A stretch of DNA of 64,000 nt from an uncultured bacterium (GCA_903825415.1 CAIKAN010000028.1:3474-67473); one strand, 5' to 3'; counted from the stretch's first letter, positions 4,725 through 48,515 are shown. Made by a program: numbers and translations. Notes: generated by a model from the sequence alone, not told the origin.

Positions 4725-7700
4725 ATGAATAAAACAAAACTCGCGCGGGTGGGGATCGTTGTGCTGGTCGTGGTCCTCTGTGTCGCTGCGTATGCGGTGT
4801 TTCATGGTTTGATAGGGAATCCTTTTCATATCCCAGCCAAGAATTATCAGGCCGCCTATCGTTTGGTCCCCGAGAAAGTCTCGCTATCGGCCGCCATCTC
4901 CGTCTCTTTGCCAACGGGAACGAGCATGCAGAATTTTGATCCGACGAAGCAGGTGATGTTCGACCCAAAGATAGAAGGAAGATGGATCGATGGTAAAGTC
5001 GCCTCGATCATACCGAGCGCGCATGCTGCTGAGGCGGAGCCTGTATATTATTTCCAGCCAAATAAAACGTTGGCTTTGAACAAGCATTATTCGGTGACCT
5101 TGGCGCTCTCTGAAGGGAAGACGATGCAGTCTGATTTTCTGGTCGTGCCTGATCCGGCTGTCATATCGATCTTGCCGCACGATGGAGAAGTTGTGACTGA
5201 TACCAAGATCAGTATCGTCTTCAATCGTCCGATGGTGCCCTTGAGCACGATAGATGAGATGTCACCGACAGATCCGCCCGTTTCTATTTCTCCGAACACG
5301 GCCGGCCGATTCAAGTGGATCAGCACCAACACCTTGCAATTCATATCCGATAGCGGTTTGATCGGATCAGCCAAATACACTGTTTCAGTCAAGGCCGGTC
5401 TCAAATCTCTCGAGGGGCTCGATGTGAAGCCGTTCACTGCATCATTTACGACCCGACATCTCCGATTTTGGACGGATCCTTCTTCGTATAGCGATAGCAA
5501 AGCGACTACCGCAGTAAGAGGCTATAATCAGCCATTCTTGATCAGATTCAATCAGGCCGTCGATCTGGATCGCACCAAAAATTCTGTGACTGTGAATGAT
5601 GGCGAAAAGAATATACCTTTCTCTGTGCAAGAAGGGAAGATCGATGGTCCGCTAGACCCTAGCATCATGGCTATCTATCCAGCTGGCGGAGATAGCGGAG
5701 TTTGGCAGCTACATCGCACTTATACCGTGACCGTCACCCATGCCTATCCAGCATCCCATGGAGATATCAGTCTCGATGCCCCTGGCACATTTTACTTTTC
5801 GGTAGATAATATCTATTCAAGCCTGACCGTTCTCTCACCGAGGACTAGCGATGCCAGTCTAGACCGCTTCGATCCACAGGGACAGCTAGCTATGCATTTT
5901 TATGAAGATATCGATCTGGCCAAAAGCAAGATCACTGGTCCAGCAGTCAACTCTGTAGTTTATGGAGAAAAGTGCAAAGATGATGTCAATACCTCGAAAT
6001 GTACAAAGGTTCCCGATCAGTCTCTTCTCCTTGTCTCTTTCGATGCTGACAAACTGAAGACTGGCGATACGACTGAGGTTGATCTCGATTCGATCGCTTC
6101 AGCCTCAGGAAATTCTCTGAGCTCTACTCGCACACCCATCAGTCTCAGTGTATACGGTCCTTTGGCTATATTTGATGTGAAATCTGGCGATTCTTTGAAT
6201 ACGCTCACAATCTGTTCCAATAATCCTTTGCAGACTGATAGCGCCAAGCAAAAGATCGATTCTACTCCAGTTGTTAAGCCTCTATCTTGGTCGCACTCTT
6301 ACAGATCAGATGTGAATCATTATGGCACGATCAGCCCTTGCGCGGTCGGTCAATTTATCACCTCGGTCTCTGGATATCTATTGCCTCAGGCTGGATATCA
6401 AGGAAAGATCGAAGCAGCCGATGTATTCGGAGGCTCAGCTAGCAAAGCTTTTGATTTCAGTACAAGAGATGCGACTGACAATGATTACGAGCTGCATAAT
6501 TATCAGAGCACGGACATCGTAGCTGTGCCAGGAAAGACCAAGATGACCTTTGCTGAGACATTCTTGCCGAGGATCACATCTACAGTCTGCCGCCTGTCTC
6601 CTTATGATTATTATCGAGTGCGACAAGATTATAAGCTCGACGCCAGAGACTATTGTCAGGAGACTGTTTCCAAAACGATAGAACTGCCGACTGATCAACC
6701 AGGCAGAGTCTTCTTTGGTGTCGATATCGCCGATTATTTTCCGGATCAGATCGGGAATTATGCCGTGCTCCTATCCAGCCCATTGTTGGCGGTGAATCGC
6801 AATAATTCATGGAGATATTCGACGGTCTCATATATCTCAGTGACGAATCTGGTCGTGACACAGAAGAGCATCAACCCTTCTTTGACTGCTGGTTATAATG
6901 GCGCCATTTTGAGAGGCGATCAGATCAATAAGCTGCAGAATATGTATTGGGTCATCGATGCTCGCACGCAAGGTCCGGTGGCAGGAGCATCTGTCAAAAC
7001 ATATAAAGATGGCAGTGTCGTGGAAACAGCTACGACCAATGATCAAGGCCTGGCATATCTCGTCCCGATCGCTGATCCTGAGATGACCGTCGTCTCGTTA
7101 GGCGGCGATAATGCTGTCATGGCTGGCGGCGCAACGGTTCTCAACTATGCTGAGAGCGCGAGCAATGCCCAAAAGACTTTCCTGTATACGGATAAACCGA
7201 TCTATCGACCTGGCCAAGAAGTAGATATCAAGGGCCTTTTACGAGCGGGGTATGACGGCTATTATGAAGCCCCGTCGGCTACTCCTATGACTCTCACTGT
7301 AACTGACCCTTCGAATGCAGCCGTGAAGCAAGTCCAATTGACACCCAACGGCTTCGGATCGATCAGTACTATTCTCGATCTCGACCCTTCAGCGAAGCTG
7401 GGAACATATAGCGCCTGTATCAAATATCAATGCGCCTATTTTGACGTCTTGGATTATGCCCCGGCAGCATTCAAGGTGGACATGACGACGGCTAAGGATG
7501 AGTATAATAAAGGCGATGATCCGGCTATCCAAGTCAGTTCCAATTATTATTTTGGCATCCCCGTCTCTAATGTGGCGTTGAATTATCATGTAAGCAGCCA
7601 ATATTATTATTTCGACAAGTACACCAAGGAATATCTCAACTTCAATAATCTAAGCGATGATATGGGGCAGGGTTATTATTATGGCGATCGCTATATAAGC

Positions 7701-10700
7701 AGCGGTCAAGCGACGCTCGATCAGAATGGTCAGACGACGATCAAGCCGACGGGCTCAGTCTTCTCAGGCACCGGCCAAGACCAGAGCAAGATCGTAGTGA
7801 TCGATTCGACGGTCAAGAATCAAGAAGGGAGGAGCATATCGGCGCAGAAATCATTCATCATGCATGCCGCACCGATATATATCGGAAGCAAGATCGTAGA
7901 GCCATTCATCGGCAAAGGAGAAGCGATCTCGCTCAAATTGAAGACTGTCGATACCGCTGCTAACCCAAGATCGCTCGGAGTCAAGGTCAATCTGTATCAC
8001 GTCTATTGGACGAGCACCAAGAACGGCAATGGCAATATGATCTGGGATCAAAAGCGCGATCTAGTCAAAGCCATTGACGCCAGCACGGATTCCAATGGCG
8101 ATGGCAGCCTTGCTCTGCCGCAAGTCGATGAAGGAGAATATGCCGTCGATGTCACCTCAGGGCAGGATGGCGCGGCAGTCGGCAGCCGATCTTGGTTCTA
8201 TGTCTATGGAGACCAGAATGTCTCTGTGAGGGGCAGCGACGATACATCGCTTGAAATGGTCTTGAATGATACCACGGTCAAGAGTGGCACTACGGCAGAA
8301 GTCCTGATCAAAATGCCGGAGGGGAAAGGCAAGGCGCTAGTGACGATCGAGCGAGGCAGCATCTATAGTTACAAGATCATAGATCTTACTGGGTCACTGA
8401 CTCGTTTTCAATTTCCCGTTGAGCAGAGATATTATCCCAATGTCTATGTGAGCGTCGTAGCCTATGCTCCGAACAGGGCAGTGCGCTTCGGCAGTCAGAA
8501 TATAAAGGTAGATAGCGATCAAAAGAAGCTCGATCTGACCATCTCTCCCGATAAGCAGCAATATAGCCCTGGCGATAAGGTGACATTGAATATCCGCTCT
8601 ACTGATTCCAGCGGCAAGCCTGTCATCGCTGATGTCTCATTAGCCGTTGTCGAGATGAATGTGCTCGCGCTTCGAGGCAATCCTCACAAGGACCCGCTCC
8701 AATATTTTTACGGGAATATCCCGCTCACAATTGGAACAGCGTCGAATTACAAGAGCTTGCTCAAGGATATACCTTGGCAAAGCAGTGACGGCAAGGGAGG
8801 GGGAGGTGGAGACCTAGACAAGCAGAAGAGCCGCGGCAATTTCAAGGAAGTGGCCTATTGGAATGCTGATATCATGACGGATCAAGGCGGCAATGCTGTC
8901 CTCTCATTCGTTTTGCCGGACAATCTGACGACTTGGCAAGCAGAGGCAGTCGGCATCACACAGGATACGAGCCTCGGAGTGGCTTATAAGGAATTCATCT
9001 CGAGCAAAGAGCTGATGATCGTTCCTCTCGAGCCGCGATTCGTATTGCCTGGCGATAAGTTCTCTCTGGGGGCGACTATCTTCAATAATAGCCGAAATGA
9101 TTTCAAGGGGAGCGTCGCTTTGACGGTCCCATCTACACTAGATTCTTCAAAAGCCTCTCTGAAGAGCGACATGAGCTTGAAGGCGGGGGAATCAAAAGAT
9201 GTATATTTTGATCTGTCTGTGCCTGAAACAGCTCAGCCTGGAGATATCCCTTATACTATCGAGGCCTCTGGATCAGGCTTATCGGATTCGGTCGTGGACA
9301 CGATCAAAGTCAATCCGAGCAGCGCATACGAGGTGACTGCGACGGCCGGTCAAACCGATTCTTCCGCCAGCGAATCAATATATGTTCCTACTACCATAAT
9401 CCCGAATATGGGCGAATTGTCTGTCAGAAGCTCGGCCACTCTAGCTATGTATCTGCCTCAGGCTTTGAATTATATGATCGATTATCCTTATGATTGCACT
9501 GAACAGATGGGGAGCCAGATCCAAGCGATAGCGCTCATGGATAAGGCACATCTGCTTTTCACCAACGGGACTTCTACTTATACAGGGAAGATCTTGTTCG
9601 ATGGAAAGGAACAAAAAGCTCAGGATATCATCCAGAGCCGATTGCAATCGATATATAACAGGCAGAGCTCCGATGGAGGATTCAGGCTCTGGTCCGAAAG
9701 CTATAGTTCGAGCTTATTCGCGACCGAGGAAGCTTTGAAGGCTTTTGACACCCTGAAGAGCGCTGGCTATAGCATCGATGAGACTGCTTGGGATAAGGGC
9801 GCAGATTATCTGTACAGTCAATATTCACATTCGAATATAGTATATTCAGACGAAGAGATCATTGCTTTTGCGGAAGCCCTATACACGAGGCCGCGATATG
9901 TCTCTGATCTATCCTTCGCGAAAGATTTCAATTCTGCCGTAGATCGTATCCTTAAAAATGAAACTGTCTCTACCGGCACCTTGCTCTCCATTAGCGGATT
10001 GTCGCATCGATACGGATTCTTGGCTTCGCAATCAAAAAAGATCGATCTCACGCTTGAGAACAGGGTGATAGTCGATTCTCGAGGCAGTTTCCTTGATGCT
10101 TCTAGTGGCGGCTATCGCTATGAGACTGCTATATCTAATACAGCTCGCTATATAGAATTGCTCTCCATGGAAAAGCAAAATCAGGCCGAATTGCCAAATC
10201 TATTGCGCTGGCTGACCCTGTCGCGCTCGAAAGACGGCTCATGGGACTCGACAGAGAATAATCTGGCTGTGATCAAGGGTTTCACCCAGTATCTCGATTG
10301 GCAGCCTGAGACATCTGCTGTCTTCATGGAAACCAATTCCTTGAATGGGGAGACGATCGATACCTTCTCTTATAAGCCTGAAAATATCCTGACCACGATC
10401 TCGAAGACTCTGCCTATGAGCCGATTGCAGTTCGGTGGCATGAATACGGTGGCCTTCGCCAGATCGGCCGATGGAGCCGCTTCAAAAGGCAAGATCTATT
10501 ACGACCTTAGCTTGAAGTATTATCTTCCGGCCGATACTATGGGACCGCGTGATGAGGGCTTTGCTATCTCGCATGGATTCTATGCTCTATCCGATACCAA
10601 AGGGCAGACCCCCATCAACCAAGCGCATGTTGGAGATGTTCTGCGGGAGCATATCGAATTCACCGTGCCGGTGACCAGGAATGATGTATCGATCGAAGAC

Positions 10701-11039
10701 TTCATCCCTGCAGGAATGGAGATAGTCGATACTAGTCTAGCGACTGAAGATAAGACCCTTTCTAACGACGTCGTTCGTTCGGCGTATGAAGATCAAGATA
10801 TTTCCAACAGTGAACAGGATGTGCAAGATTCGACATTCTGGCCAGACCATCAGGAGTGGAAGGATGATCGAGCTTTTCTCTATAAAGAGAGCCTTAGCCC
10901 AGGCACCTATTCATTCGATTATAAAGTGAGAGCGCTCGTTCCGGGCAAATATCTGCGCCTGCCAAGCCAGATCTCTGAATTATACACGCCTGAGAATTTC
11001 GGTCGCACAGGAGCAGGATCATTTACTATCGATAAATAG
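4725..11039 (+). CDS. alpha-2-macroglobulin family protein with a thioester, N-terminally membrane-anchored
   Basis: 2104 aa. N-terminal TM helix. Thioester motif DYPYDCTEQMG (CxEQ). Large beta-rich body. Confidence 0.85.
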   Translation: MNKTKLARVGIVVLVVVLCVAAYAVFHGLIGNPFHIPAKNYQAAYRLVPEKVSLSAAISVSLPTGTSMQNFDPTKQVMFDPKIEGRWIDGKVASIIPSAHAAEAEPVYYFQPNKTLALNKHYSVTLALSEGKTMQSDFLVVPDPAVISILPHDGEVVTDTKISIVFNRPMVPLSTIDEMSPTDPPVSISPNTAGRFKWISTNTLQFISDSGLIGSAKYTVSVKAGLKSLEGLDVKPFTASFTTRHLRFWTDPSSYSDSKATTAVRGYNQPFLIRFNQAVDLDRTKNSVTVNDGEKNIPFSVQEGKIDGPLDPSIMAIYPAGGDSGVWQLHRTYTVTVTHAYPASHGDISLDAPGTFYFSVDNIYSSLTVLSPRTSDASLDRFDPQGQLAMHFYEDIDLAKSKITGPAVNSVVYGEKCKDDVNTSKCTKVPDQSLLLVSFDADKLKTGDTTEVDLDSIASASGNSLSSTRTPISLSVYGPLAIFDVKSGDSLNTLTICSNNPLQTDSAKQKIDSTPVVKPLSWSHSYRSDVNHYGTISPCAVGQFITSVSGYLLPQAGYQGKIEAADVFGGSASKAFDFSTRDATDNDYELHNYQSTDIVAVPGKTKMTFAETFLPRITSTVCRLSPYDYYRVRQDYKLDARDYCQETVSKTIELPTDQPGRVFFGVDIADYFPDQIGNYAVLLSSPLLAVNRNNSWRYSTVSYISVTNLVVTQKSINPSLTAGYNGAILRGDQINKLQNMYWVIDARTQGPVAGASVKTYKDGSVVETATTNDQGLAYLVPIADPEMTVVSLGGDNAVMAGGATVLNYAESASNAQKTFLYTDKPIYRPGQEVDIKGLLRAGYDGYYEAPSATPMTLTVTDPSNAAVKQVQLTPNGFGSISTILDLDPSAKLGTYSACIKYQCAYFDVLDYAPAAFKVDMTTAKDEYNKGDDPAIQVSSNYYFGIPVSNVALNYHVSSQYYYFDKYTKEYLNFNNLSDDMGQGYYYGDRYISSGQATLDQNGQTTIKPTGSVFSGTGQDQSKIVVIDSTVKNQEGRSISAQKSFIMHAAPIYIGSKIVEPFIGKGEAISLKLKTVDTAANPRSLGVKVNLYHVYWTSTKNGNGNMIWDQKRDLVKAIDASTDSNGDGSLALPQVDEGEYAVDVTSGQDGAAVGSRSWFYVYGDQNVSVRGSDDTSLEMVLNDTTVKSGTTAEVLIKMPEGKGKALVTIERGSIYSYKIIDLTGSLTRFQFPVEQRYYPNVYVSVVAYAPNRAVRFGSQNIKVDSDQKKLDLTISPDKQQYSPGDKVTLNIRSTDSSGKPVIADVSLAVVEMNVLALRGNPHKDPLQYFYGNIPLTIGTASNYKSLLKDIPWQSSDGKGGGGGDLDKQKSRGNFKEVAYWNADIMTDQGGNAVLSFVLPDNLTTWQAEAVGITQDTSLGVAYKEFISSKELMIVPLEPRFVLPGDKFSLGATIFNNSRNDFKGSVALTVPSTLDSSKASLKSDMSLKAGESKDVYFDLSVPETAQPGDIPYTIEASGSGLSDSVVDTIKVNPSSAYEVTATAGQTDSSASESIYVPTTIIPNMGELSVRSSATLAMYLPQALNYMIDYPYDCTEQMGSQIQAIALMDKAHLLFTNGTSTYTGKILFDGKEQKAQDIIQSRLQSIYNRQSSDGGFRLWSESYSSSLFATEEALKAFDTLKSAGYSIDETAWDKGADYLYSQYSHSNIVYSDEEIIAFAEALYTRPRYVSDLSFAKDFNSAVDRILKNETVSTGTLLSISGLSHRYGFLASQSKKIDLTLENRVIVDSRGSFLDASSGGYRYETAISNTARYIELLSMEKQNQAELPNLLRWLTLSRSKDGSWDSTENNLAVIKGFTQYLDWQPETSAVFMETNSLNGETIDTFSYKPENILTTISKTLPMSRLQFGGMNTVAFARSADGAASKGKIYYDLSLKYYLPADTMGPRDEGFAISHGFYALSDTKGQTPINQAHVGDVLREHIEFTVPVTRNDVSIEDFIPAGMEIVDTSLATEDKTLSNDVVRSAYEDQDISNSEQDVQDSTFWPDHQEWKDDRAFLYKESLSPGTYSFDYKVRALVPGKYLRLPSQISELYTPENFGRTGAGSFTIDK

Positions 11040-12881
11040 GTCTCTGGCTTTCTCGATATCATCGCCGGATATCTCGTAGGCAGAGTTTGTCGTCCCTCCG
11101 ATCGGGCGGATCTTATCAAAAGCGAAAGGAGTCTTCTTGTTGTATGTAGAATGCGACATGAGCTCCATGACCTGACTCCAAATCTCGCCGGCGCCGCTCT
11201 GTCCGGACAATCTCTTTGTAGATTTGTTATCGGCATTGCCGACCCATACTCCTACCAAGAAATCTGGCGTGAATCCTATAACCCAACTATCATGATAATC
11301 GTCGGATGTCCCAGTTTTCAGCGCGTAATTATCTAGAGGAATATTCAGATCGCTCCTGTAGCCGAATTGATCCGTAGCGAGATGGCGGTCGGATAGGATC
11401 TTTGTCACTAGCTGGGTGTATTGTGGTTCTATGACTTGTCTTGAGCTTTGCGGAAAGAAGCTGGAATTCAAACTTTGATCGGAGAATAGATGCATTGAAT
11501 TCAGTTTTCCTTGATTGGGGAAGATGGTATAGAGATGAGCCAGATCCGGAAGGGTCATATCGATGGTACCGAGAGCGGCGCCTATGCCGAGAGCATGCAC
11601 TTTTTTCGTATCTGCATATCCAAGGGTGCTCAAAAAATCGGCAAAATGATCTACTCCTACAAAAGAGAGCGTCTTGACTGCGGGAATATTTATGCTGTTA
11701 TCTAGAGCATACGCTGCTGTGATCCTGCCGTGGAATTTCCCATCATAATTCCTAAGATAGAACGATTGGCCATCGTCAGTCTTGTACTCATACTCCTCGT
11801 CGTCGATCAGGGTATATGGCCTGGCTCCCATCTCAAAAGCTTTAGCATAGACTAGAGGCTTTATGGTCGAAGCGACTTGGCGCGGTTCTTGGAGCATGTT
11901 GATCTGTTGGCCATAGCTAATGCCTGTCGGGTCCGGGCTTCCGATGAAAGTCAGGATCTCATTCTCAGGCAGCTTCATGATCACGATAGCCATATTGTGC
12001 GCATCGCGATCTGATAGAGAGGGGACTATTGATCCGAGGATCTGCCGAACATTCGTGGTTAATTTTGAATCGATCGAGGTCTTGATCTCTTTGGGCATAT
12101 CTTTCATCGACTGGATATATGGCCTGAGCTCGAAGCTATCTTCCTTTTCTTGAAATGAAGACAGATTCTGTTTGACTGTATCTGGACTAGCGAAGCTCTG
12201 ATCTACTGTTTGTACGCCGAGCTGCTTTGCCAGGATTCTCGACTTGCGGATGTTGCTCTCGGATAAGGGATTATCGAAACTGGGATCGCTCAATGTTCCT
12301 AATAATTGGACTATCTCCTCTGTCGAGAGCTTCTCAGGAGATTTATTGAAATATGCCTTACTAGCCGTTTTCAGACCTTGAATATGATTGCCGAAATAGG
12401 CCGTATTGCAGTAGGCGAGGAGGATGGAGGATTTCGGCATATAGAGGTCATACATCATCGCATCCATTGTCTCAATCGCTTTATTAGAAATGGTTCGCCT
12501 AGTCTCGTTCCCAAGCAGCATCTTGGCGAGCTGCTGATCGATGGTGCTAGCGCTGCGGCGATTCCCGATCCCCATTTTAGTGAGGATGAGCTGTGTGGTC
12601 CCAATCGGATTCATGCCAGGATGAGAGTAGAAATGCTTGTCTTCTTTGCTCAGCAAAAGCTCAGCGAATCTTTGCGGTACGCTCGTCGCGAATATCGAAT
12701 AGTTGCCTCTGCTATTCGGCAAGATCCAGATCGGTTCGCCGCTCCTATCAACGACGACTGTCGACTGAATATCTTCATACGCTCTATTGAGCCCTCGGCT
12801 GATCATGGCGGTGAGGACTATGAGAATGAAAATGATGAGCAGGCTTGCTTTCAGTACGGTTTTTTTCAGGGAAATCTTCAT
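11019..12881 (-). CDS. pbpC: class A penicillin-binding protein (PBP1C-like transglycosylase/transpeptidase)
   Basis: N-terminal TM. Glycosyltransferase motifs EDKHFYSHPG and RSASTIDQQ. Transpeptidase motifs STIKP (SxxK) and KTGT. Convergent with the A2M gene, overlapping its end by 21 nt. Confidence 0.85.
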   Translation of the reverse strand: MKISLKKTVLKASLLIIFILIVLTAMISRGLNRAYEDIQSTVVVDRSGEPIWILPNSRGNYSIFATSVPQRFAELLLSKEDKHFYSHPGMNPIGTTQLILTKMGIGNRRSASTIDQQLAKMLLGNETRRTISNKAIETMDAMMYDLYMPKSSILLAYCNTAYFGNHIQGLKTASKAYFNKSPEKLSTEEIVQLLGTLSDPSFDNPLSESNIRKSRILAKQLGVQTVDQSFASPDTVKQNLSSFQEKEDSFELRPYIQSMKDMPKEIKTSIDSKLTTNVRQILGSIVPSLSDRDAHNMAIVIMKLPENEILTFIGSPDPTGISYGQQINMLQEPRQVASTIKPLVYAKAFEMGARPYTLIDDEEYEYKTDDGQSFYLRNYDGKFHGRITAAYALDNSINIPAVKTLSFVGVDHFADFLSTLGYADTKKVHALGIGAALGTIDMTLPDLAHLYTIFPNQGKLNSMHLFSDQSLNSSFFPQSSRQVIEPQYTQLVTKILSDRHLATDQFGYRSDLNIPLDNYALKTGTSDDYHDSWVIGFTPDFLVGVWVGNADNKSTKRLSGQSGAGEIWSQVMELMSHSTYNKKTPFAFDKIRPIGGTTNSAYEISGDDIEKARDLFIDSK

Positions 12882-38210: not shown

Positions 38211-39920
38211 ATGAAAGAACAGATCCTAGAATGCCTGAAAAAGGCAGTTACAAAGCTTGGAATAGATGCGTCTGACGCGAATTTGAGCTTTCCTGATAAT
38301 GTCGATCATGGCGATTATACGACCAATATCGCTCTCATAAGCGCTGGAAAAAGCAAAACCAATCCGAGAAAACTAGCGGAAGAGATAGTCAAAGAGATAG
38401 AGATCAAAACACCTGACTTCTTGGAATCTGTCACTATCGCCGGGCCAGGGTTCATAAATTTCAAGATCAAAGAAGGGATTTTGGCGAAAGAGGTCGTTAA
38501 GCTTTCTGAGGCAGGAGATGATCTCGGTAAATCTCAAACTGAGGCTGGCAAAAAGATCCTGATCGAATATACGGATCCAAATACATTCAAAGCTTTCCAT
38601 ATCGGCCATTTGATGGCGAACGCCATAGGTGAGTCGTTGTCTCGGCTCATTGAATGCTCCGGCGCCTCAGTCACTCGCCTGTGCTATGCGGCAGATATAG
38701 GTTTGCATATCGCGAAAGCTATTTGGGCTTGGCAAAGACATTTGAATGAGACTCCAGCTGACGATGCTGATATCATTCCACGCACCGCATTTCTGGGAAA
38801 GATGTATGTCGAGGGGACGAAAGCTTACGATGATGATCCCATCGCAAAAAAAGATATCGATGCCCTGAATAAAGTCATTTACGATAAGTCTGATGACAAA
38901 GTGATGGCCTTATATGAAAAGGGCAGGAAGTGGAGCCTCGATCATTTCGAGCTTTTGTATAAGCTATTGGATACGAAATTTGACGCTTATCTTTATGAGA
39001 GCGAGATGGCTACGGTCGGCTTAAAGATCGTGAAAGAGAATATGAGCAAGGTATTCAAAGAAAGCGATGGAGCGATAGTCTTCCATGGTGAAGATTACGG
39101 TCTTCATACCAGAGTATTCATAAACTCTGTCGGCTTGCCTACATACGAGGCAAAAGATATGGGGTTGAATGCCACGAAATTCTCAAAGTATCCTGACATT
39201 GACCAGTCTATTATAGTCACCGCGAGCGAGCAGAACGAGTATTTTAAAGTCATCCTCAAGGCGCTTTCCTTATTTGATAAGGAAGCCGCAGCCAAGACTA
39301 TGCACATAGGGCATGGAATGATGCGCTTTGCTTCCGGTAAGATGTCTTCGCGTACAGGAAATGTCATCACTGCGGAATCCTTACTCGCTGATGTGAGAGA
39401 GATGGTTGCTGAGAAAATAGCAAGCCGAGGATTCGGTGAAGGGGAAGCGACCGAGATATCGGATATTATCGCTGTAGGTGCTATAAAATATTCCGTTCTC
39501 CGTTCAGCGATCGGCAGCGATATCATCTTTGATTCAGCAAAATCTATCTCCTTCGAAGGCGATTCTGGTCCATATCTACAATATTCTGCCGTGCGAGCCG
39601 CTTCTATATTAGAAAAGGCTAAGCAGGAAGGGGTGTCGCAGACTGTCAATTCATTGCCGGAAAAAGTCTCTTTGGTTGAAAAGCTTTTGATCAGATTCCC
39701 GGAGATCATCTCTAGAGCCAAAGCCGAATATGCTCCACAAGGAGTCGCCAATTATCTGATGAGCTTGGCGGGAGCATTCAATAGTTTCTATGCTTCGCAA
39801 GTCATCGTAGACAAGAATGATAAGCTCTCTCCGTACTATGTAGCGCTTACTAAGGCATTCAGACAGACGATGGTGAATGGGTTGTGGGTGCTGGGAATAA
39901 AAGTCCCTGAGAAGATGTAG
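38211..39920 (+). CDS. argS: arginine--tRNA ligase
   Basis: Class I HIGH-type motif region (…FHIGHL…) and a KMSSR-like GKMSSRTGNV. Confidence 0.85.
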   Translation: MKEQILECLKKAVTKLGIDASDANLSFPDNVDHGDYTTNIALISAGKSKTNPRKLAEEIVKEIEIKTPDFLESVTIAGPGFINFKIKEGILAKEVVKLSEAGDDLGKSQTEAGKKILIEYTDPNTFKAFHIGHLMANAIGESLSRLIECSGASVTRLCYAADIGLHIAKAIWAWQRHLNETPADDADIIPRTAFLGKMYVEGTKAYDDDPIAKKDIDALNKVIYDKSDDKVMALYEKGRKWSLDHFELLYKLLDTKFDAYLYESEMATVGLKIVKENMSKVFKESDGAIVFHGEDYGLHTRVFINSVGLPTYEAKDMGLNATKFSKYPDIDQSIIVTASEQNEYFKVILKALSLFDKEAAAKTMHIGHGMMRFASGKMSSRTGNVITAESLLADVREMVAEKIASRGFGEGEATEISDIIAVGAIKYSVLRSAIGSDIIFDSAKSISFEGDSGPYLQYSAVRAASILEKAKQEGVSQTVNSLPEKVSLVEKLLIRFPEIISRAKAEYAPQGVANYLMSLAGAFNSFYASQVIVDKNDKLSPYYVALTKAFRQTMVNGLWVLGIKVPEKM

Positions 39921-39950: not shown

Positions 39951-40229
39951 TTGAGAAGTAGTAAAATAAATAAAAAGTGCTACTATCATTCTATGACTAC
40001 AAAGAATCAATTCAATATCATCATAAAGAGGACCAGAAAATGGTTCATCGGTTGGGTGGAAGAGATTCCAGGAGTTAATTCTCAGGGTAAATCTCTCAGA
40101 GAGCTGCGACAGAACCTTCATGATGCATTGCTCATGATTATTGATGCCAACAAGACTATTGCTCGGGAAAATATCAGTAAAAGCAAGAATTACCGCAGAG
40201 AGCTATTGAATATTCAAGTCCCGGCTTAA
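39951..40229 (+). CDS. hicB: HicB-family antitoxin
   Basis: FIGWVEEIPGVNSQGKSLRELRQNLHDAL matches the HicB N-terminal (UPF0150) pattern. The start is probably at an internal Met. Confidence 0.6.
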   Translation: MRSSKINKKCYYHSMTTKNQFNIIIKRTRKWFIGWVEEIPGVNSQGKSLRELRQNLHDALLMIIDANKTIARENISKSKNYRRELLNIQVPA

Positions 40230-40235
40230 TTCGAT

Positions 40236-40430
40236 ATGAAAAGGCTAGACTTGATGAAGCACTTGAAAGAAAATCATTGCGAACTCTTTAGGGAAGGGGC
40301 AAAACACTCTGTGATCAAGAATATATTGAACAATAAGGTATCTTCGATCCCAAGACATTCAGAAGTCGAAAACCATCTTGCGAGGAAAATTTGTAGGGAC
40401 CTCGGTGTAATTGAGATCACAAAGAAATAG
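40236..40430 (+). CDS. hicA: HicA-family mRNA interferase toxin
   Basis: MKRLDLMKHLKENHCELFREGAKHSVIKN…IPRHSEV… (HicA/YcfA pattern). Confidence 0.6.
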   Translation: MKRLDLMKHLKENHCELFREGAKHSVIKNILNNKVSSIPRHSEVENHLARKICRDLGVIEITKK

Positions 40431-40470: not shown

Positions 40471-43400
40471 ATGGATGAGTTAAAACCAAACAAAAGCCCG
40501 CATGCCGAGCGCGAAGAGCGCATTTTGGCGTCATGGAAAGAGAAGGGAATATTCGAGAAGAGCTTGGAGAAGAACAAGGGCAAGGGTAAAGATTTCCTCT
40601 TCTATGAGGGTCCTCCCACTGCCAATGGCCGTCCAGGCATCCACCATCTCGAAGCTCGCGCTTTCAAAGACGCTATACCTCGATACAAGACCATGCGGGG
40701 ATTTTATGTGCGCCGCAAGGGAGGGTGGGATACTCACGGCTTGCCTGTAGAATTACAGGTTGAAAAGGAGCTTGGTCTCAAGTCCAAGAAAGAGATCGAA
40801 CAATATGGCATAGGCGCATTCAATGATAAATGCAAAGAGAGCGTCTGGAAATATGTCCATGAATGGGAGGGCTTCACCGATCGCATGGGGTATTGGGTCG
40901 ATCTCAAGAATCCGTATATCACATACAAGCCCGAATATATCGAATCTGTCTGGAATGTGATCAAGACTGTCGGTGACAAAGGCTTGCTCTACAAAGATTA
41001 CAAAGTCGTGCCATGGTGCCCTCGTTGCGGTACGGCATTGTCTTCGCATGAATTGGCGCAGGGGTATCAGGACGTGAAGGATCTGGCGGTCACGGTGAAA
41101 TTCAGAATCAATAATCAAAAGGCAAAAGGCAAAAATGAAAGTCAAAACTCAAAAGTAGAAGACACTTACTTGCTAGCTTGGACGACGACACCTTGGACGT
41201 TACCGGGGAATGTGGGGTTGGCAGTTAATTCAAAAATTGAATATGTGAAGATAAAAGTCGAAGATGATGGTTTCTATATTCTTGCGAAATCTCGTCTGGC
41301 GGTCTTGAAAGATACGAAATATTCGACCGTTGAAACAATGAAAGGTTCAGAGCTTGTCGGTATGGAATATGAGCCTCTTTATCCGTTTTTGAAGGACAAT
41401 ATCTCCGGTCCCGAAAAAGAGAAATTGGGCAACGCTTACAAAGTCTATGCCGCTGATTTCGTCACCACCGAAGATGGCACGGGCATAGTCCATACAGCCG
41501 TGATGTATGGCCAAGACGACTTTGAATTGGGAACGAAAGTAGGTCTGCCCAAATATCATTTGGTGAACGAAGATGGGACATTCAAAAAAGAGGCCGGATT
41601 CTTGGCGGGTGCTTTTGTTAAAGATCCAGGTACAGATGTCGCTATCATCAAGGATCTAGCTGGCAGGGGATTATTATTCGCAAAAGAAAAGTATGAGCAT
41701 AGCTATCCTTTCTGTTGGAGATGCCATACCCCTCTCATTTATTTTGCGCGCGATTCTTGGTATATCAAGATGTCGGCCCTGAGGAATGACCTGGTCAAAG
41801 AGAATGAAGGCATACACTGGGAACCTGGGCATATCAAAGAAGGGCGCTTTGGCGAATGGCTATCCGAGGTCAAGGACTGGGCTATTTCTCGTGAGCGCTA
41901 TTGGGGCACACCTTTGCCTGTCTGGTCATGTGAAAAGTGTAAGAAGATAAAGGTTGTAGGTTCGAAGGCGGATGTCTCTCAAAAGCCGAAAAATAGCTAT
42001 TCCATCATGAGGCATGGACAGGCTGAGAACAATACTCTCGGTATCATAAGCGATAAGCCTGAATATCCGCATCATTTGACGGATTTGGGCAGGCAACAAG
42101 TGGCTGAGACTGCTGAATCTCTGAAGGGTTCGAAATTTGATTTGATATTCGTATCTCCATTTGTGCGCACGATGGAGACGACGCAGATCCTGAAGGGTAA
42201 GCTCGGCTGGAAAGATGAGCAGATCCATGTCGATAGCCGCATCCACGAAGTTGGGGTCGGTGATTGGAGCGGCAGGAAGGTCGCGGATACCATGAAGGAG
42301 TTCAAGTATGAAGATAGATTCGAGCGTTGTCCGAAAGGAGGGGAGACTTATGCTGACGTAAAAAAGCGCATGGGAGATTTCCTGTATGACCTTGAATCAA
42401 AATATGAAGGCAAGAAGATTTTGATCATCTCTCATGAGACGCCGTTGTTCCTATTAGTCGCTGTAGCCAAAGGTTTGGACCGCAAACAATCTCTCGATCT
42501 GCGAGGAGATAAAGAATATATCGCCAATGCCCAAGAACAGGATCTTGATTTTGAGATCATTCCACATAATTCTGAGTATGAGCTCGACCTGCATCGTCCA
42601 TTCATAGATGAGGTAAAGTTGGCCTGCGAGTGCGGAGGCACCATGAATCGTGCCAAGGAAGTTTTGGATGTCTGGTTCGATTCCGGGTCTATGCCTTTCT
42701 CGCAGGACCATTATCCATTTGAGAACAAAGAATTGATCAATGGCAAAGGCTATCCAGCCGATTTCATTTCCGAAGCCATAGATCAGACTCGTGGTTGGTT
42801 CTACACTCTCCATGCTATCGGCATTCTGATGGGCAAAGGCAAGGCTTTTAAGAATGTCATTTGCTTGGGCCATATCTTGGATGCCAAAGGCAAGAAGATG
42901 TCCAAGTCGATCGGGAATGTGGTCAACCCTTGGGAGATGATGGATAAATACGGAGCCGATGCTTTGCGCTTTTGGATGTATTCGGTAAATCAGCCGGGAG
43001 ATTCCAAGAATTTTGAGGAGAAGACTGTAGATGAGATCGTGAAGAAGGTGTTTAATCTGGCGGCGAATGTATTGTCTTTTTATAAATTGTATGAGGATGA
43101 TGAAATCAAAAATCAAAAATCAAAAATCAAAAATACAGATAAAAAAGTCAAAAATAATCAATCGCAAAATGTTTTGGATCAATGGATTGTTGCTAGGTTG
43201 AATCAATTAATAAGCACGATTACAAAAGGACTGGATGGTTACATATTCATGGAACCAGCTAGGGCGATACGTGATTTTATGGCGGATCTATCGCAGTGGT
43301 ATCTCCGGAGATCGAGAGATAGATTTAAAGAGGAAGGGGAGGACAAAGAACAGGCTCTGGCGACAACCAGATTCATACTGATCACTTTAGCAAAGGTGAT

Positions 43401-44001
43401 GGCGCCATTCACGCCATTCTTCGCCGATTATCTGTACGAAGAGGCGGGCGGTGGATTGGAGAGCGTTCATCTTGAGAATTGGCCGGAGGCGAGCGAAATT
43501 GATATAAGTATCTTAAAGGATATGGAAACAGTAAGATATTTTTCTTCGAAAGGACTTGAGGCGCGATCACTTGCAAGGATAAATGTTCGGCAACCGCTTA
43601 AGACATTCCATATCAACGAATATAAATCATACATGCTCAAGCACGATTCAAATGGCTCCAATAAGGTTCCTAGTAGTGAGAAGATATCTCTGTCAGAAGA
43701 TATGGTCAATCTGATTCGTGATGAAGTAAATGTTAAGAATGTCTTATTTGATTCGACTATAGAAGAAGAGGTAAAACTAGACCTGATCATCACTCCTGAA
43801 TTAAAAGAAGAAGGCGATCTGCGAGAGCTTCTCCGCAAAATCCAAGACTTACGCAAGGAGAAAGGCTTAACTGTCGGTGACTTGGCGGTTTTGATGGTCA
43901 CGGATGAATTCAAGGCTATCGTTACCAAGAATGGAGACGCTATCAAGAAGGCTACGAATCTTAAGAGTATTGAATTTGGCGCAAAGTTGGAGATAAAATA
44001 G
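40471..44001 (+). CDS. ileS: isoleucine--tRNA ligase with an embedded histidine-phosphatase (PGAM-like) domain and low-complexity in-frame inserts
   Basis: HHLEAR (HIGH-like), WCPRCGT, the editing-domain region, DWAISRERYWGTPLPVW, DVWFDSGS, DQTRGWFY and KMSKS. Residues about 508-668 (nt about 41992-42474) read SIMRHGQAENN…SPFVRTMETT…EVGVGDWSG…GGETYADV…ISHETPLF, a histidine-phosphatase fold. Confidence 0.9.
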   Translation: MDELKPNKSPHAEREERILASWKEKGIFEKSLEKNKGKGKDFLFYEGPPTANGRPGIHHLEARAFKDAIPRYKTMRGFYVRRKGGWDTHGLPVELQVEKELGLKSKKEIEQYGIGAFNDKCKESVWKYVHEWEGFTDRMGYWVDLKNPYITYKPEYIESVWNVIKTVGDKGLLYKDYKVVPWCPRCGTALSSHELAQGYQDVKDLAVTVKFRINNQKAKGKNESQNSKVEDTYLLAWTTTPWTLPGNVGLAVNSKIEYVKIKVEDDGFYILAKSRLAVLKDTKYSTVETMKGSELVGMEYEPLYPFLKDNISGPEKEKLGNAYKVYAADFVTTEDGTGIVHTAVMYGQDDFELGTKVGLPKYHLVNEDGTFKKEAGFLAGAFVKDPGTDVAIIKDLAGRGLLFAKEKYEHSYPFCWRCHTPLIYFARDSWYIKMSALRNDLVKENEGIHWEPGHIKEGRFGEWLSEVKDWAISRERYWGTPLPVWSCEKCKKIKVVGSKADVSQKPKNSYSIMRHGQAENNTLGIISDKPEYPHHLTDLGRQQVAETAESLKGSKFDLIFVSPFVRTMETTQILKGKLGWKDEQIHVDSRIHEVGVGDWSGRKVADTMKEFKYEDRFERCPKGGETYADVKKRMGDFLYDLESKYEGKKILIISHETPLFLLVAVAKGLDRKQSLDLRGDKEYIANAQEQDLDFEIIPHNSEYELDLHRPFIDEVKLACECGGTMNRAKEVLDVWFDSGSMPFSQDHYPFENKELINGKGYPADFISEAIDQTRGWFYTLHAIGILMGKGKAFKNVICLGHILDAKGKKMSKSIGNVVNPWEMMDKYGADALRFWMYSVNQPGDSKNFEEKTVDEIVKKVFNLAANVLSFYKLYEDDEIKNQKSKIKNTDKKVKNNQSQNVLDQWIVARLNQLISTITKGLDGYIFMEPARAIRDFMADLSQWYLRRSRDRFKEEGEDKEQALATTRFILITLAKVMAPFTPFFADYLYEEAGGGLESVHLENWPEASEIDISILKDMETVRYFSSKGLEARSLARINVRQPLKTFHINEYKSYMLKHDSNGSNKVPSSEKISLSEDMVNLIRDEVNVKNVLFDSTIEEEVKLDLIITPELKEEGDLRELLRKIQDLRKEKGLTVGDLAVLMVTDEFKAIVTKNGDAIKKATNLKSIEFGAKLEIK

Positions 44002-44028: not shown

Positions 44029-44757
44029 ATGTATAGCATCCAAACTACCCCTGGTTTCATCATCGATTCGCGGGCATACGGCGAAGCGGGGAAGATGTTA
44101 TTCATTTTCACGAGAGATCTGGGTTTGGTCATGGCGGTGGCGCAGGGGATACGCTTCGAAAGATCGAAGCTGCGGCCTTTCACGCAAGACTATTCATTCG
44201 GGGAATTCTCATTTGTCAGAGGGAAAGAGATGTGGAGATTGACGAGCGCGCAGGAATTCGATGAGTCCGGCGAGCTCGGTGAATATCATTTTCCCTTGTC
44301 AGGTAAAATCGCCTGCTCCAATTGCAACCGTATCATGGCTTGCCAGAGGCGCCAAGATACGGGCAATTGTAGCAGGCTCGAATCGCATTACCTGACAAGG
44401 GAAAATGATATTCACCGAGCTCGCCTACGCTCTGAATTGATAGCACGAGTAGCTTCGCTCCTTCGGCGATTCCTTCGAGGGGAAGAAGCGCATCCTGAAT
44501 TATTCGAATGTGTGAGGGCTTGTGGCGTCTTCTTGGCTAGCGATGAAGGCGACCTGACTTCAGAACAAATGGAGACACTTGAATCGTTGATCGTGATCCG
44601 CATCTTGCATAATCTAGGATATGTGGGGGATGTCTCGGGTTTGAATGGGGAAGTCTCTTCCAATGAGATCAGTCTGAGCTTGCTCGATGGCTTGAAACAA
44701 CATAGGGTGGCGATGAATAGGCATATAAACAAAGCGTTGAAGGAATCGCATTTATAA
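44029..44757 (+). CDS. recO: DNA repair protein RecO carrying an in-frame palindromic-element insertion
   Basis: N-terminal OB-fold region (…GKMLFIFTRDLGLVMAVAQGIRFERSKLRPFTQ…) and a C-terminal helical domain. Residues encoded by 44281-44413 correspond to the repeat element. Confidence 0.65.
   Translation: MYSIQTTPGFIIDSRAYGEAGKMLFIFTRDLGLVMAVAQGIRFERSKLRPFTQDYSFGEFSFVRGKEMWRLTSAQEFDESGELGEYHFPLSGKIACSNCNRIMACQRRQDTGNCSRLESHYLTRENDIHRARLRSELIARVASLLRRFLRGEEAHPELFECVRACGVFLASDEGDLTSEQMETLESLIVIRILHNLGYVGDVSGLNGEVSSNEISLSLLDGLKQHRVAMNRHINKALKESHL
44281..44413. repeat. palindromic element, family 2, copy 2, with perfect 26-bp terminal inverted repeats, located inside recO
   Basis: GAATATCATTTTCCCTTGTCAGGTAA … TTACCTGACAAGGGAAAATGATATTC are perfect reverse complements. 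The core AAAATCGCCTGCTCCAATTGCAACCGTATC…GGCGCCAAGATACGGGCAATTGTAGCAGGC…ATCGCATT has nested inverted repeats. Confidence 0.75.
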
Positions 44758-45777: not shown

Positions 45778-47364
45778 CTACAATTTGAGACCGTCTAAGA
45801 CACCCCAGACTTCTTTTCCCAGACCAAAACCCTCTGTATTCTGCCCGACCAAAGGTGTGGATGCCTCCGAAGTCTCTTCTATCGACTGTGGCGGTTCAGG
45901 ATCTGATGGTGTCGTTACGGTTTTGGTCAACTGTAGAAGCAACTTTTTCTCATACACCTTTGCTAGCGCTTCCACATGAGCCACTGTTGGACTACTCATC
46001 CCTGACTCCCAAAGCGCTCGATTGGCCAGCTCCTTTGGATCTGTCCACTGAACGAGGTCCACCCTTTTATTCTCCTGTTGTTTTCCATTCAGGGTGACGC
46101 TTTTGATCTTTCCCATCGTTCCTTTGTCTCCAAAAGGAATCTGACACTTTGAAGGATGGCCTCGGAACCACTCACCGTAGCTCCATTCGCCTCTCCTGCT
46201 ACCTGTCTTTCCCACGATAACCAAGACGTCGTTTTGTCCCGGCATTTCAAGAATGGGCAAGAGGTCGTTAGTGCCGCAACTGACGCGGACGAATCCTTCT
46301 GGTGCAGTCGGGATTTCGTTCAGGCGGCTTTGCAGCCACTTGTATTCATCAGGCGACAGACGCTCGCCTTTGACAAAGTAAACGATCTCCTTGCATTTTC
46401 CATCGTCGTCATAACGATCTTCGGCGGTGCTCGTCAACACACCCTGTGTTTCGATGAACAGTTGCCAGAGATGATCGAGGCGGTCTTGGCGGATCTTTTC
46501 CGCACCGAACACCAACCGTTCCAATTCCGAGATATCCTCTTTATTGAACCGATAGAAGCGTTCGCGTTTTCCCGGCCAATTCTTCTCGTAACGGATGGTA
46601 TGGGCCGATTTTAACCCTGGAGACATCGGGAAATAACTGATGTCTCCGTTTATTTCTCCACCCAATGTCTCAAATATCAGGCCATAGTGGCCATTGGGAC
46701 ATGAATGGTCTCTCAGTGCTGTCCCATCTCTCCTGGCCACTTCCTCCAACCGCGCCATGAACTGCTGGCGCAGGGGAAAGACTTCTGCTTCGGTTTGGAG
46801 AAATTTCTCAACCTCTTCGAGAGGTGCGACCCATAGCCGGCTTTCTAATTTGCCTCGTATGCGCTCTTTCCTAAGAAGAAATGCTGCGGCGTTGCCAAAA
46901 GCGAGCAGGGTATTGGTCTCCACATCTGAGTTCGGAGTGTCACTGAGGACTTCCGAAATCACTGCACCCCATGATGGGTTGCCGGATTCAGACGCGCACT
47001 CAACGATCCCGAGTCCGGGAATACCGTACTGGCCAAGAAGGCGAGTAACCTTGCCCAAGTATGATTGCTTGGCGCTCTCGCGCTCCTCCTGCACAGCTTT
47101 GACCGTATCATTCCGACGCTCAGCAAGGATGCCTCGCCCTTCGTCGAGCACCTTTCTGAGAGTTTCTGGTTCCGCGTCCGGGATGATCATTCCGCCTTTT
47201 GACAAGACGATCCCAAACTTACGGAACTCATCGGGTGCGATTTCGTAGTTACCTACGAATGTACCACCCTTCTTTGCGGCGGCGATTGAACCGCCCCACA
47301 GATATTTTGCGAACGATTCGTTCGCAACAATAACATCCGTGGTAATTTTTTCAAATTTCGGCAT
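45778..47364 (-). CDS. hypothetical 528-aa protein at the distal end of a higher-GC island
   Basis: Long ORF with GC richer than the flanks. No motif recognised by eye. Confidence 0.4.
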   Translation of the reverse strand: MPKFEKITTDVIVANESFAKYLWGGSIAAAKKGGTFVGNYEIAPDEFRKFGIVLSKGGMIIPDAEPETLRKVLDEGRGILAERRNDTVKAVQEERESAKQSYLGKVTRLLGQYGIPGLGIVECASESGNPSWGAVISEVLSDTPNSDVETNTLLAFGNAAAFLLRKERIRGKLESRLWVAPLEEVEKFLQTEAEVFPLRQQFMARLEEVARRDGTALRDHSCPNGHYGLIFETLGGEINGDISYFPMSPGLKSAHTIRYEKNWPGKRERFYRFNKEDISELERLVFGAEKIRQDRLDHLWQLFIETQGVLTSTAEDRYDDDGKCKEIVYFVKGERLSPDEYKWLQSRLNEIPTAPEGFVRVSCGTNDLLPILEMPGQNDVLVIVGKTGSRRGEWSYGEWFRGHPSKCQIPFGDKGTMGKIKSVTLNGKQQENKRVDLVQWTDPKELANRALWESGMSSPTVAHVEALAKVYEKKLLLQLTKTVTTPSDPEPPQSIEETSEASTPLVGQNTEGFGLGKEVWGVLDGLKL

Positions 47365-47612
47365 ATAGCCTTTCCACCTCCTCCCAGCATCTTTGATGGA
47401 AGAGATTGTTCTGTTGTCGGGATGCTCCGACTGTTGTTGACTAACTGATCAACCCGCGATTCCTATCGTGGGCTGAAAAAGTTTGGTGAATGTCCGCATA
47501 CATTCACCATTGGGAACCGCATTATGCATCAAGCGGGATGCAAGAGGTTTTTTCAATGAGTCCTTCTAAACTCATAAATGTTTTCAGCGTGTACATTCAA
47601 CGTCTCGTTTCT

Positions 47613-48146
47613 TTAGCCTGCGATCTGACCGAGCAGGTGGCGGTACACCATAGCTGCTACCGCCGAATCGTAGAGGGGATTATGCGTCCCACCCTCGAAC
47701 TCGCCGACGGACAGATTGTGTTTCTTCACATATCCATCCACCGAGGTCGCATCCTCGCCTGCCTGTTGCAGGTTTCCGCTTACATCGTAGAGCGGGTAGG
47801 GTGCATCCCAGTCGCCAATGAGCTTCTGGGTGTGCATGTCGCGAAGAACTTTCGTCTCTACGATGTAGCCCATGTGAACGACCACATCGGCTCCCTCCTT
47901 GTTGGCTTTGTAGAAGGCCGCGAAGGCAGCGAGGAGTGCCTCGTACGTGTCGTGGGTCACGGGGATGTTTGCGATCTTGGGGAGGACGTTCTCCTTGACC
48001 CAAGGGTCGGTGACTTCCGTGTCCGGGAGCCGTCCGACAAACCGAGCGATTTCGGAGCCTTTCTCGTCATAGACGAGCGCACCGATGGCGAACGCCCGTC
48101 CCCACAGCCCGTTTGTTTCGGCGTCAAAACTAAACAATGTCTTCAT
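47613..48146 (-). CDS. DEDDh-type 3'-5' exonuclease (DnaQ/oligoribonuclease-like fold)
   Basis: Exo I motif FSFDAETNGL (D-x-E) and Exo III motif H-x4-D (THNPLYDSA). 177 aa. Confidence 0.55.
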   Translation of the reverse strand: MKTLFSFDAETNGLWGRAFAIGALVYDEKGSEIARFVGRLPDTEVTDPWVKENVLPKIANIPVTHDTYEALLAAFAAFYKANKEGADVVVHMGYIVETKVLRDMHTQKLIGDWDAPYPLYDVSGNLQQAGEDATSVDGYVKKHNLSVGEFEGGTHNPLYDSAVAAMVYRHLLGQIAG

Positions 48147-48515
48147 ACTGTAATTCCATTTCTTTTCCTGATTTTTCCGCCGGAATCGCGGTCAAGCCAT
48201 CATGCTCCTGCGTTAGGTTTCACGCAGAAACAGGTTGCTGCCAGACAAGCAACACCGGACAAGAGCCGAAGCTCCACATGCGAGCTGATGGTTGAAACAA
48301 TCTTCTTGAACACCTCCTTTGAAGAGAGATGCTCAAGATACTGTTCCAACGATAAACACCTATGTTATGAACAAAGGCTCTACCGACCGCCGAGATCTCT
48401 CTCAGCAAGCGGATAAAGTCCAGCACCGATCTTTCGATGGTGCTGGGAATTAATGAACGCCGCAGCGTTCATTGTGATGGTGATCAAGCAACTATGAGCC
48501 TGCGGGCTCACTGGA

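Follow-up and report, generated by a model that had tools for sequence, protein, structure and literature searches.

Organization of the ileS locus

The 64,000-nucleotide stretch analyzed here (GCA_903825415.1, CAIKAN010000028.1:3474-67473; hereafter the window) comes from an uncultured bacterium of the Patescibacteria (by similarity, Paceibacteria/Taylorbacteria-like) and carries an isoleucyl-tRNA synthetase (IleRS) gene with a histidine phosphatase (HP) domain nested inside it (ileS-HP; Table 1). A first-pass annotation of the window, made from the sequence alone, had proposed an IleRS with an HP domain that splits a Cys knuckle, encoded in one uninterrupted frame of 1176 amino acids (aa). 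The open reading frame (ORF) at 40471-44001 on the plus strand agreed with this description, and the domain arrangement was borne out by profile searches, predicted structure, and comparative data.

The 1176-aa protein was compared to the ileS equivalog profile TIGR00392 (NCBIfam) and scored 887.5 bits (cut-off 621.4), in two stretches with the insert between them. The Pfam domains followed the order tRNA-synt_1 (two segments flanking His_Phos_1), Anticodon_1, and DUF5915. The best solved relatives of the IleRS part were the P. megaterium IleRS2 (8C8W) and the T. thermophilus IleRS (1ILE). Residues 198-413 matched structures of the isolated T. thermophilus editing domain, and the editing motif WTTTPWTLPGN (residues 237-247; W237-T238-T239-T240-P241-W242-T243) was invariant in 66 homologs. 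The KMSKS motif was located at residues 809-813. The class I signature had the form GXHH, a variant of HXGH that has been documented as functional in IleRS2 and associated with mupirocin hyper-resistance by Brkic et al. (PMC10485003). The TIGR00392 score, the HIGH (as GIHH) and KMSKS signatures, and the Thr-rich motif of CP1 all placed the protein in class Ia IleRS, and the gene is predicted to be the organism's housekeeping type-2 IleRS, of the GXHH variant. The MupA and MupB profiles (NF000257 and NF000258) gave scores of 794 and 782, respectively, against a cut-off of 1900, which corresponds to general IleRS2 similarity only.

Table 1. Coordinates of the ileS-HP gene, its parts, and its conserved neighbors in the window
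Feature	Position	Strand	Description
argS (ArgRS)	38211..39920	+	Conserved upstream neighbor; Pfam; synteny
ileS-HP gene	40471..44001	+	Uninterrupted ORF, 1176 aa; type-2 isoleucyl-tRNA synthetase with nested histidine phosphatase
IleRS residues 1-503	40471..41979	+	First half of Rossmann fold, CP1 editing domain, CP2, N-terminal half of CP3; aligns with T. thermophilus 12-477
Class I signature G56-I57-H58-H59	40636..40647	+	Non-canonical GXHH, read from sequence
CxxC, C487/C490	41929..41940	+	First CP3 zinc ligand pair by alignment with T. thermophilus CQAC; CEKC at 487-490
Nested insert, residues 504-704	41980..42582	+	Whole histidine phosphatase domain and short C-terminal linker IIPHNSEYE; delimited against 1ILE and 8C8W
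Pfam His_Phos_1 (PF00300), residues 512-678	42004..42504	+	E=8.2e-33, 114.1 bits (cut-off 21.7); profile positions 3-170 of 194
R514-H515-G516	42010..42018	+	Predicted catalytic Arg and phospho-accepting His; invariant 120/120
R566	42166..42168	+	Predicted second phosphate-binding Arg (SPxxR motif); invariant 120/120
E593	42247..42249	+	Predicted general acid; invariant 120/120
H655	42433..42435	+	Predicted second catalytic His; invariant 120/120
IleRS residues 705-1176	42583..44001	+	Second half of Rossmann fold, anticodon-binding domain, type-2 C-terminal domain; aligns with T. thermophilus 488-791
CxC, C719/C721	42625..42633	+	Second CP3 zinc ligand pair by alignment with T. thermophilus CAC; CECGG at 719
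recO	44029..44757	+	Conserved downstream neighbor; Pfam RecO_N; synteny in nearly all loci

The nested phosphatase domain

The borders of the insert were read from phmmer alignments to the two solved enzymes: query residues 503 and 705 paired with residues 477 and 488 of the T. thermophilus IleRS, and query residues 492 and 699 with residues 464 and 480 of the P. megaterium IleRS2. About 200 residues are thus found in place of the ~10-15 in solved IleRS structures. The first-pass annotation had recognized the insertion but put it at ~160 residues, and by alignment to the solved IleRS structures it is nearer 200 (504-704). The region corresponds to the CP3 subdomain, where T. thermophilus IleRS has a motif that binds zinc (PMC7191050). 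As judged by alignment, the phosphatase is located at the tip of the CP3 zinc knuckle, between the two putative zinc ligand pairs.

The proposed Pfam scan of the protein gave a His_Phos_1 match far above the cut-off (Table 1), and the motifs quoted in the first-pass annotation were in place: RHG (514-516), GRQQ (540), VRTMETT (565), EVGVGDW (593), and ISHETP (653). For conservation, the 120 best homologs (61-70% identical, 1102-1242 aa) were collected from NCBI, JGI, ENA, and Logan assemblies. R514, H515, G516, N521, R566, E593, H655, and the four Cys residues were invariant in all of them, and the spacing between Cys490 and Cys719 was constant within 225-238 residues. The mean identity to the query was 49% in the insert and 79% in the IleRS catalytic core.

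The full-length AlphaFold2 (AF2) model had a mean pLDDT of 83.8 and a pTM of 0.73, with a pLDDT of 88-97 in the insert, including both junctions. The domain modeled on its own reached a pLDDT of 94.9 and a pTM of 0.91, in line with an independent fold. When searched against the PDB with Foldseek, the domain matched small phosphomonoesterases of ~200 aa (TM 0.73-0.76, probability 1.0, identity 20-25%), the top ones being Rv2419c, the Hydrogenobacter and Entamoeba phosphoserine phosphatases, PhoE, CobC, TIGAR, and the riboflavin-pathway HFP. The PF00300 score, the catalytic core residues, and the alpha/beta fold of the predicted structure all assign the insert to the branch-1 histidine phosphatases.

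The insert scored below the cut-offs of the characterized subfamilies: dPGM_arch NF038349 (83.2, cut-off 225) and PRK01295 (35.7, cut-off 316) for dPGM, CobC TIGR03162 (68.7, cut-off 162.9), PspA NF045917 (56.1, cut-off 350), and SixA TIGR00249 (31.6, cut-off 74.5). The NCBIfam cut-off for GpmB was likewise missed by a wide margin, and the ERHYG motif, the TG loop, and the C-terminal tail of the dPGM type were not seen in the insert sequence. The insert apparently represents a branch-1 histidine phosphatase of no characterized subfamily, and it is probably catalytically competent, because the catalytic residues are invariant despite the low identity of the insert and the predicted fold is confident. 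We consider it nearly certain that the window protein holds a real, active, nested phosphatase.

Distribution in Patescibacteria

PF00300 occurred together with the IleRS domains in all 120 closest homologs, which were labeled as Patescibacteria, Paceibacterota, Taylorbacteria, or Parcubacteria. In the databases, they bear no more specific name than "class I tRNA ligase family protein" or "isoleucyl-tRNA synthetase". GTDB, with one genome per species, was scanned using an insert-only alignment as the query, which gave at least 599 stretches, with at least 585 confirmed by tblastn. The best 80 of these at least 585 stretches were all from Patescibacteria (Taylor-, Kaiser-, Nomura-, Campbell-, Zambryskibacteria, and others). 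The order IleRS_N, phosphatase, IleRS_C in one frame was found in 80/80 of these loci, and the SHMT-ArgRS-IleRS-RecO synteny of the window was repeated in most of them. The nested architecture is the norm in a large clade of Patescibacteria. The first-pass annotation had called it unusual, which holds relative to the literature, but the architecture is not rare.

The first-pass annotation had raised the concern of an assembly chimera. A false joining of separate IleRS and phosphatase genes, by misassembly or by a frame error, was ruled out, because the same architecture is conserved across many independent assemblies (120/120 closest homologs, 80/80 GTDB loci, and the 35 metagenome loci described below); the separate genes are adjacent in sister lineages, which could in principle favor mis-joins, but the junctions are conserved, the GC content is uniform across the insert with no break, and pLDDT is high through both junctions, which leaves such an origin practically no room.

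Free and nested states of the locus

Metagenome contigs were scanned with an alignment of stand-alone relatives of ~190 aa, which resulted in 204 confirmed matches, and 80 loci were fetched. In 40 of the 80 loci (free state), the phosphatase was a separate ORF of ~190 aa between argS and ileS. The ileS genes of these loci had no insert, the gap between their N- and C-terminal parts being 127-196 nt, compared to ~750 nt in the nested state. The nested state was found in 35 loci, at the identical CP3 position, and the other five, mostly short contigs, showed no IleRS. The distance from the stop codon of the free phosphatase gene to the ileS start ranged from -11 to +22 nt in 38 of the 40 free-state loci, and in one of them (L104) the two genes overlapped as TTATGA. 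This arrangement is predicted to couple the free phosphatase gene translationally to ileS. The HP-ileS junction was broken in 1/40 loci and the argS-HP junction in 7/33. The RH[GA] motif was kept in 17/17 free copies. The phosphatase is a Patescibacteria-specific family genetically tied to ileS, and its locus exists in two alternative states.

In the junction alignments, every nested clade had a single insertion point, after (V/I)GSxxEL and before DLH(R/K)P.ID. The nested segment comprised the entire free protein and a linker, P-[HRYF]-N-x-x-x-E, present only in the nested forms. That all nested forms have the same insertion point and P-x-N linker favors one nesting event. In a neighbor-joining (NJ) tree of the IleRS sequences (loci L001-L080 and L084-L163) with the phosphatase removed, the free and nested states were interleaved, and Fitch parsimony on 100 bootstrap NJ trees gave 5-8 changes between the states in every tree. 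The conflict between trees and junctions could possibly come from an NJ artefact, from locus replacement by recombination or horizontal gene transfer, or from true recurrence. Repeated switching between the states, if true, would represent a route of domain insertion that has rarely been documented. The NJ tree of the phosphatase domain was star-like, with the free and ArgRS-fused copies grouping together.

The nested-only linker has a weak, statistically unassessed resemblance to the IleRS N-terminal peptide. Such a likeness would be compatible with a tandem duplication and subsequent deletions, and it is not relied on here.

The free phosphatase had an isoelectric point (pI) of ~10 and a net charge of ~+11%, compared to +2.5% for ArgRS and +1.2% for IleRS of the same loci. 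The charge excess was +3.3 points in nested forms of low GC content and ~0 in nested forms similar to that of the window. Approximately 40% of the extra charge mapped to two places, the strand and loop that precede the catalytic Glu and the cap framing the pocket.

Tandem copies and other fusions

An insert-only search of 1.84 billion cluster representatives yielded 846 matches below 1e-10, and the best 150 were inspected. IleRS flanks were present in 106 of the 150, with insert identities down to ~31-35%. Tandem phosphatase domains were observed at the CP3 site, two in P0200 and P0254 and four in P0135. Most of the tandem copies kept RH[GA], and some carried RHA instead of RHG. P0267 was likewise among the IleRS relatives with 2-4 tandem phosphatase domains in the CP3 loop. 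In P0223, the phosphatase, a GNAT domain, and an IS200-like Y1_Tnp segment were all found inside the IleRS polypeptide.

ArgRS with a C-terminal phosphatase was rare (three clusters, P0263, P0271, and P0272, two of them only 49% identical). The ArgRS-HP fusions directly precede ileS in L082 and L083 and are followed by recO in L081, and they therefore seem to have arisen by read-through at the same locus. Sua5/TsaC with a C-terminal phosphatase (P0233) made up a small lineage of four clusters or more. It was encoded among genes of tRNA maturation, namely those for the CCA-adding enzyme (with an HD domain), TGT, Q-salvage, and TruD, and the fusion represents an independent association, since it is located away from the ileS locus. 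The TsaC (Sua5/YrdC; P0393-P0505) of Patescibacteria is a fusion hub, most often with an Ogt-type DNA_binding_1 domain; its other partners were TruB, 2H phosphoesterases (CPDase/2_5_RNA_ligase2), GNAT, NUDIX, and a DNA glycosylase domain.

The CP3 cysteines also varied. Some nested lineages had no CP3 cysteine at all (L018, L069, and L080), and the free-state IleRSs had CxxC, CxC, and other CP3 variants. The zinc site is dispensable for the nested arrangement, as the three nested lineages have lost the cysteines.

Comparison with known systems

Outside the insert, the window protein resembles IleRS2 (1ILE, 8C8W) in full-length homology (E ~1e-243), domain order, the CP3 CxxC...CxC pattern, the type-2 C-terminal domain, and KMSKS, and its GXHH is known from some IleRS2. 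It differs in having an independent enzyme fold of ~200 residues at the CP3 tip, where IleRS2 has ~10 residues. A catalytic domain at this tip was found in no solved or described IleRS by structure comparison and literature search. The insert shares the fold, the size of ~200 aa, and the RHG/Arg/Glu/His set with M. tuberculosis Rv2419c (GpgP), phosphoserine phosphatases, Geobacillus PhoE, CobC, and TIGAR. Unlike these small, broad-specificity branch-1 phosphatases, to which it is 20-25% identical, it is nested in or coupled to an aminoacyl-tRNA synthetase (aaRS), and its free form is highly basic.

The ileS_w_GNAT family (NF040702) is a precedent for an extra enzyme domain in IleRS, and P0223 has His_Phos followed by GNAT. 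The window protein, in contrast, scored 312.7 against the NF040702 cut-off of 1999 and has no GNAT domain (no acetyltransferase Pfam match). The M. tuberculosis Rv2228c-type RNase H/acid phosphatase (PRK07238) also joins a branch-1 phosphatase to a nucleic-acid-handling enzyme, and the insert matched its phosphatase half weakly (72 bits, cut-off 326). In that protein, however, the fusion is end-to-end and to another partner, whereas the window protein has a nested insertion.

Full-text literature searches combining aaRS or IleRS with histidine phosphatase gave nothing relevant, and recent large evolutionary and structural studies of IleRS (including PMC10485003) do not mention a phosphatase, CP3 insertions, or Patescibacteria. 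A widespread bifunctional IleRS whose phosphatase alternates with a coupled neighbor gene is apparently undescribed. Extra catalytic domains inside the catalytic core are very rare in aaRSs, although these are among the best-studied enzymes, and here a predicted second whole enzyme is located in CP3 of the essential IleRS in hundreds of Patescibacteria species.

Possible function

A role linked to translation or tRNA is suggested by three observations: the HP-ileS coupling is tighter than the surrounding synteny, the TsaC-HP fusion is located in a tRNA-maturation cluster, and the free form is basic compared to ArgRS and IleRS of the same locus. We tentatively favor a function mechanistically coupled to IleRS or tRNA charging and regard it as quite possible. 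The module would be an active phosphomonoesterase working with IleRS, in a complex in trans when free and tethered in cis in the window protein. Through a His515 phospho-enzyme mechanism, it would remove a terminal phosphomonoester from a polyanionic, translation-linked substrate. Its most plausible target would be tRNA with a 3' end that bears a 2'- or 3'-phosphate and could not be charged in this form. The free enzyme would need its own positive surface for RNA, and the nested enzyme would use the tRNA affinity of IleRS. A basic free form and a nested form with little or no charge excess are expected if the free enzyme holds the polyanion itself and the nested one borrows this affinity.

That the activity is specifically tRNA-end dephosphorylation is doubtful. 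A fuller version is a shade more doubtful: here the module would be the first branch-1 histidine phosphatase directed at RNA and, as part of an aaRS or docked to one, would heal the tRNA 3' end at the point of charging, including the removal of toxin-added pyrophosphate from the CCA end, and the locus would have switched between free and nested states more than once. A role at the tRNA end or in charging, if true, would add a new quality-control or repair step of translation in organisms with minimal genomes. The natural pair of in trans and in cis forms makes the functional link directly testable.

Several points weigh against a tRNA-linked function. Every one of the nearest solved folds (20-25% identity) belongs to a phosphatase of small metabolites, all NCBIfam equivalog cut-offs for phosphatases were missed, and the literature searches gave no branch-1 histidine phosphatase acting on RNA ends. 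Neighborhood and fusion are weak functional evidence here, because the synteny of functionally unrelated genes (SHMT-ArgRS-IleRS-RecO) is also conserved in this phylum and TsaC of Patescibacteria is fused with many unrelated partners. The presence of 2-4 tandem phosphatase copies in the same loop speaks against a precise coupling geometry to the IleRS active site, and the high pI of the free form may partly reflect a proteome bias of low-GC genomes.

Some of the same points make a metabolic role the serious rival to a coupled function, and we consider it possible, though somewhat unlikely. The domain would then be a housekeeping phosphatase of small metabolites (phosphoserine-, sugar-phosphate-, or PGM-like) that is only co-expressed with ileS; it would have been an operon neighbor first, and its in-frame insertion would later have been tolerated by a permissive surface loop, with no mechanistic link to aminoacylation. 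All top structural neighbors are enzymes of this kind (Rv2419c, iPSP, PhoE, CobC, TIGAR, and riboflavin HFP), genomes of this phylum typically conserve the order of unrelated genes and contain promiscuous fusions, and the variants with 2-4 tandem copies resemble concatenated general phosphatase modules. PGM was undetected in several shallow Parcubacteria clades (Jaffe et al. 2020, PMC7304191), a gap that leaves room for a hidden enzyme. Such a role is, however, difficult to combine with an HP-ileS coupling much tighter than the surrounding synteny, with a second, independent fusion whose partner, encoded among tRNA-maturation genes, is once more an enzyme of the tRNA pathway, and with a free form that is unusually basic for a metabolite enzyme when compared to its own genomic neighbors. 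The wide margins by which the dPGM, CobC, PspA, SixA, and GpmB cut-offs were missed and the missing dPGM-type motifs also speak against it. If the metabolic role is true, an enzyme may have been missed in pathway reconstructions, since the annotation of the protein mentions no more than a tRNA ligase. Either way, the locus illustrates how a neighboring gene can become a nested domain.

IleRS, ArgRS, and TsaC all turn ATP into acyl-AMP and pyrophosphate (PPi), and among the relatives, CobC and HFP use ribose or ribityl 5'-phosphates as substrates. The domain could be imagined to hydrolyze AMP (to adenosine) or PPi at the source, pulling adenylation forward, which would account for its occurrence with these three adenylate-forming enzymes. 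The first-pass annotation had likewise suggested that it could act on a nucleotide or aminoacyl-adenylate by-product. Branch-1 histidine phosphatases are phosphomonoesterases, though, and are not known to hydrolyze PPi. The destruction of AMP would be wasteful for organisms dependent on nucleotide salvage, and neither the clade-wide restriction to IleRS nor the basic free form would be explained. We regard this scavenging role as unlikely.

Slightly less likely still is a protein phosphatase that acts on IleRS or a partner, e.g., by reversing an inhibitory phosphorylation by HipA-like, aaRS-targeting toxin kinases. SixA, PGAM5, and Sts-1 act on proteins, the His_Phos_1 superfamily has protein phosphatases among its members (the NCBIfam SixA match was weak), and the association with aaRS both in cis and in trans would suit it. 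No kinase partner was seen in the loci, however, the SixA score was far below the cut-off, and the structural neighbors are metabolite enzymes.

A pseudo-enzyme, whose fold is kept for binding or scaffolding (e.g., an extra tRNA contact) and not for catalysis, would agree with the faster evolution of the insert relative to the IleRS core and with RHA in place of RHG in some tandem copies, but it is highly improbable given that all catalytic residues, including the general-acid Glu, are invariant in 120/120 homologs at ~49% identity and RH[GA] is kept in all 17 free copies.

Other features of the window

The gap between argS and ileS in the window contains a small HicB-like ORF (UPF0150, weak match) and then a HicA-like ORF (39951-40430). 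The latter encodes 64 aa and matched HicA_toxin with E=9e-5, which is under the Pfam cut-off. These ORFs occupy the site of the free phosphatase gene in sister lineages. Immediately downstream of recO, two sizeable ORFs (45778-47364, minus strand, 528 aa; 47490-48416, plus strand, 308 aa) had no Pfam match at E<=0.001.

The first-pass annotation had regarded the insert as a possible passenger from the family of a stand-alone ORF at 3866. This ORF (3866-4276, 136 aa) matches His_Phos_1 over no more than its N-terminal half (positions 1-96 of the 194-position profile) and was rejected as the source of the insert: the identity was only 32%, the ORF is truncated, and the real relatives are the genes of ~190 aa upstream of ileS. 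The other two forward frames downstream contained no continuation of the domain, and the ORF is apparently a truncated remnant. A reverse-transcriptase gene (2379-3416; RVT_1, YADD) lies just upstream of it.

An Rfam scan of both strands of the 64 kb found no family at the gathering score, and no tRNA, rRNA, or riboswitch was detected. On the plus strand, a bacterial alpha-2-macroglobulin of 2104 aa (MG2, A2M_BRD, A2M, TED, bMG10) is encoded at 4725-11039. The gene adjoining it (11019-12881, minus strand) encodes a bifunctional penicillin-binding protein with transglycosylase and transpeptidase domains.

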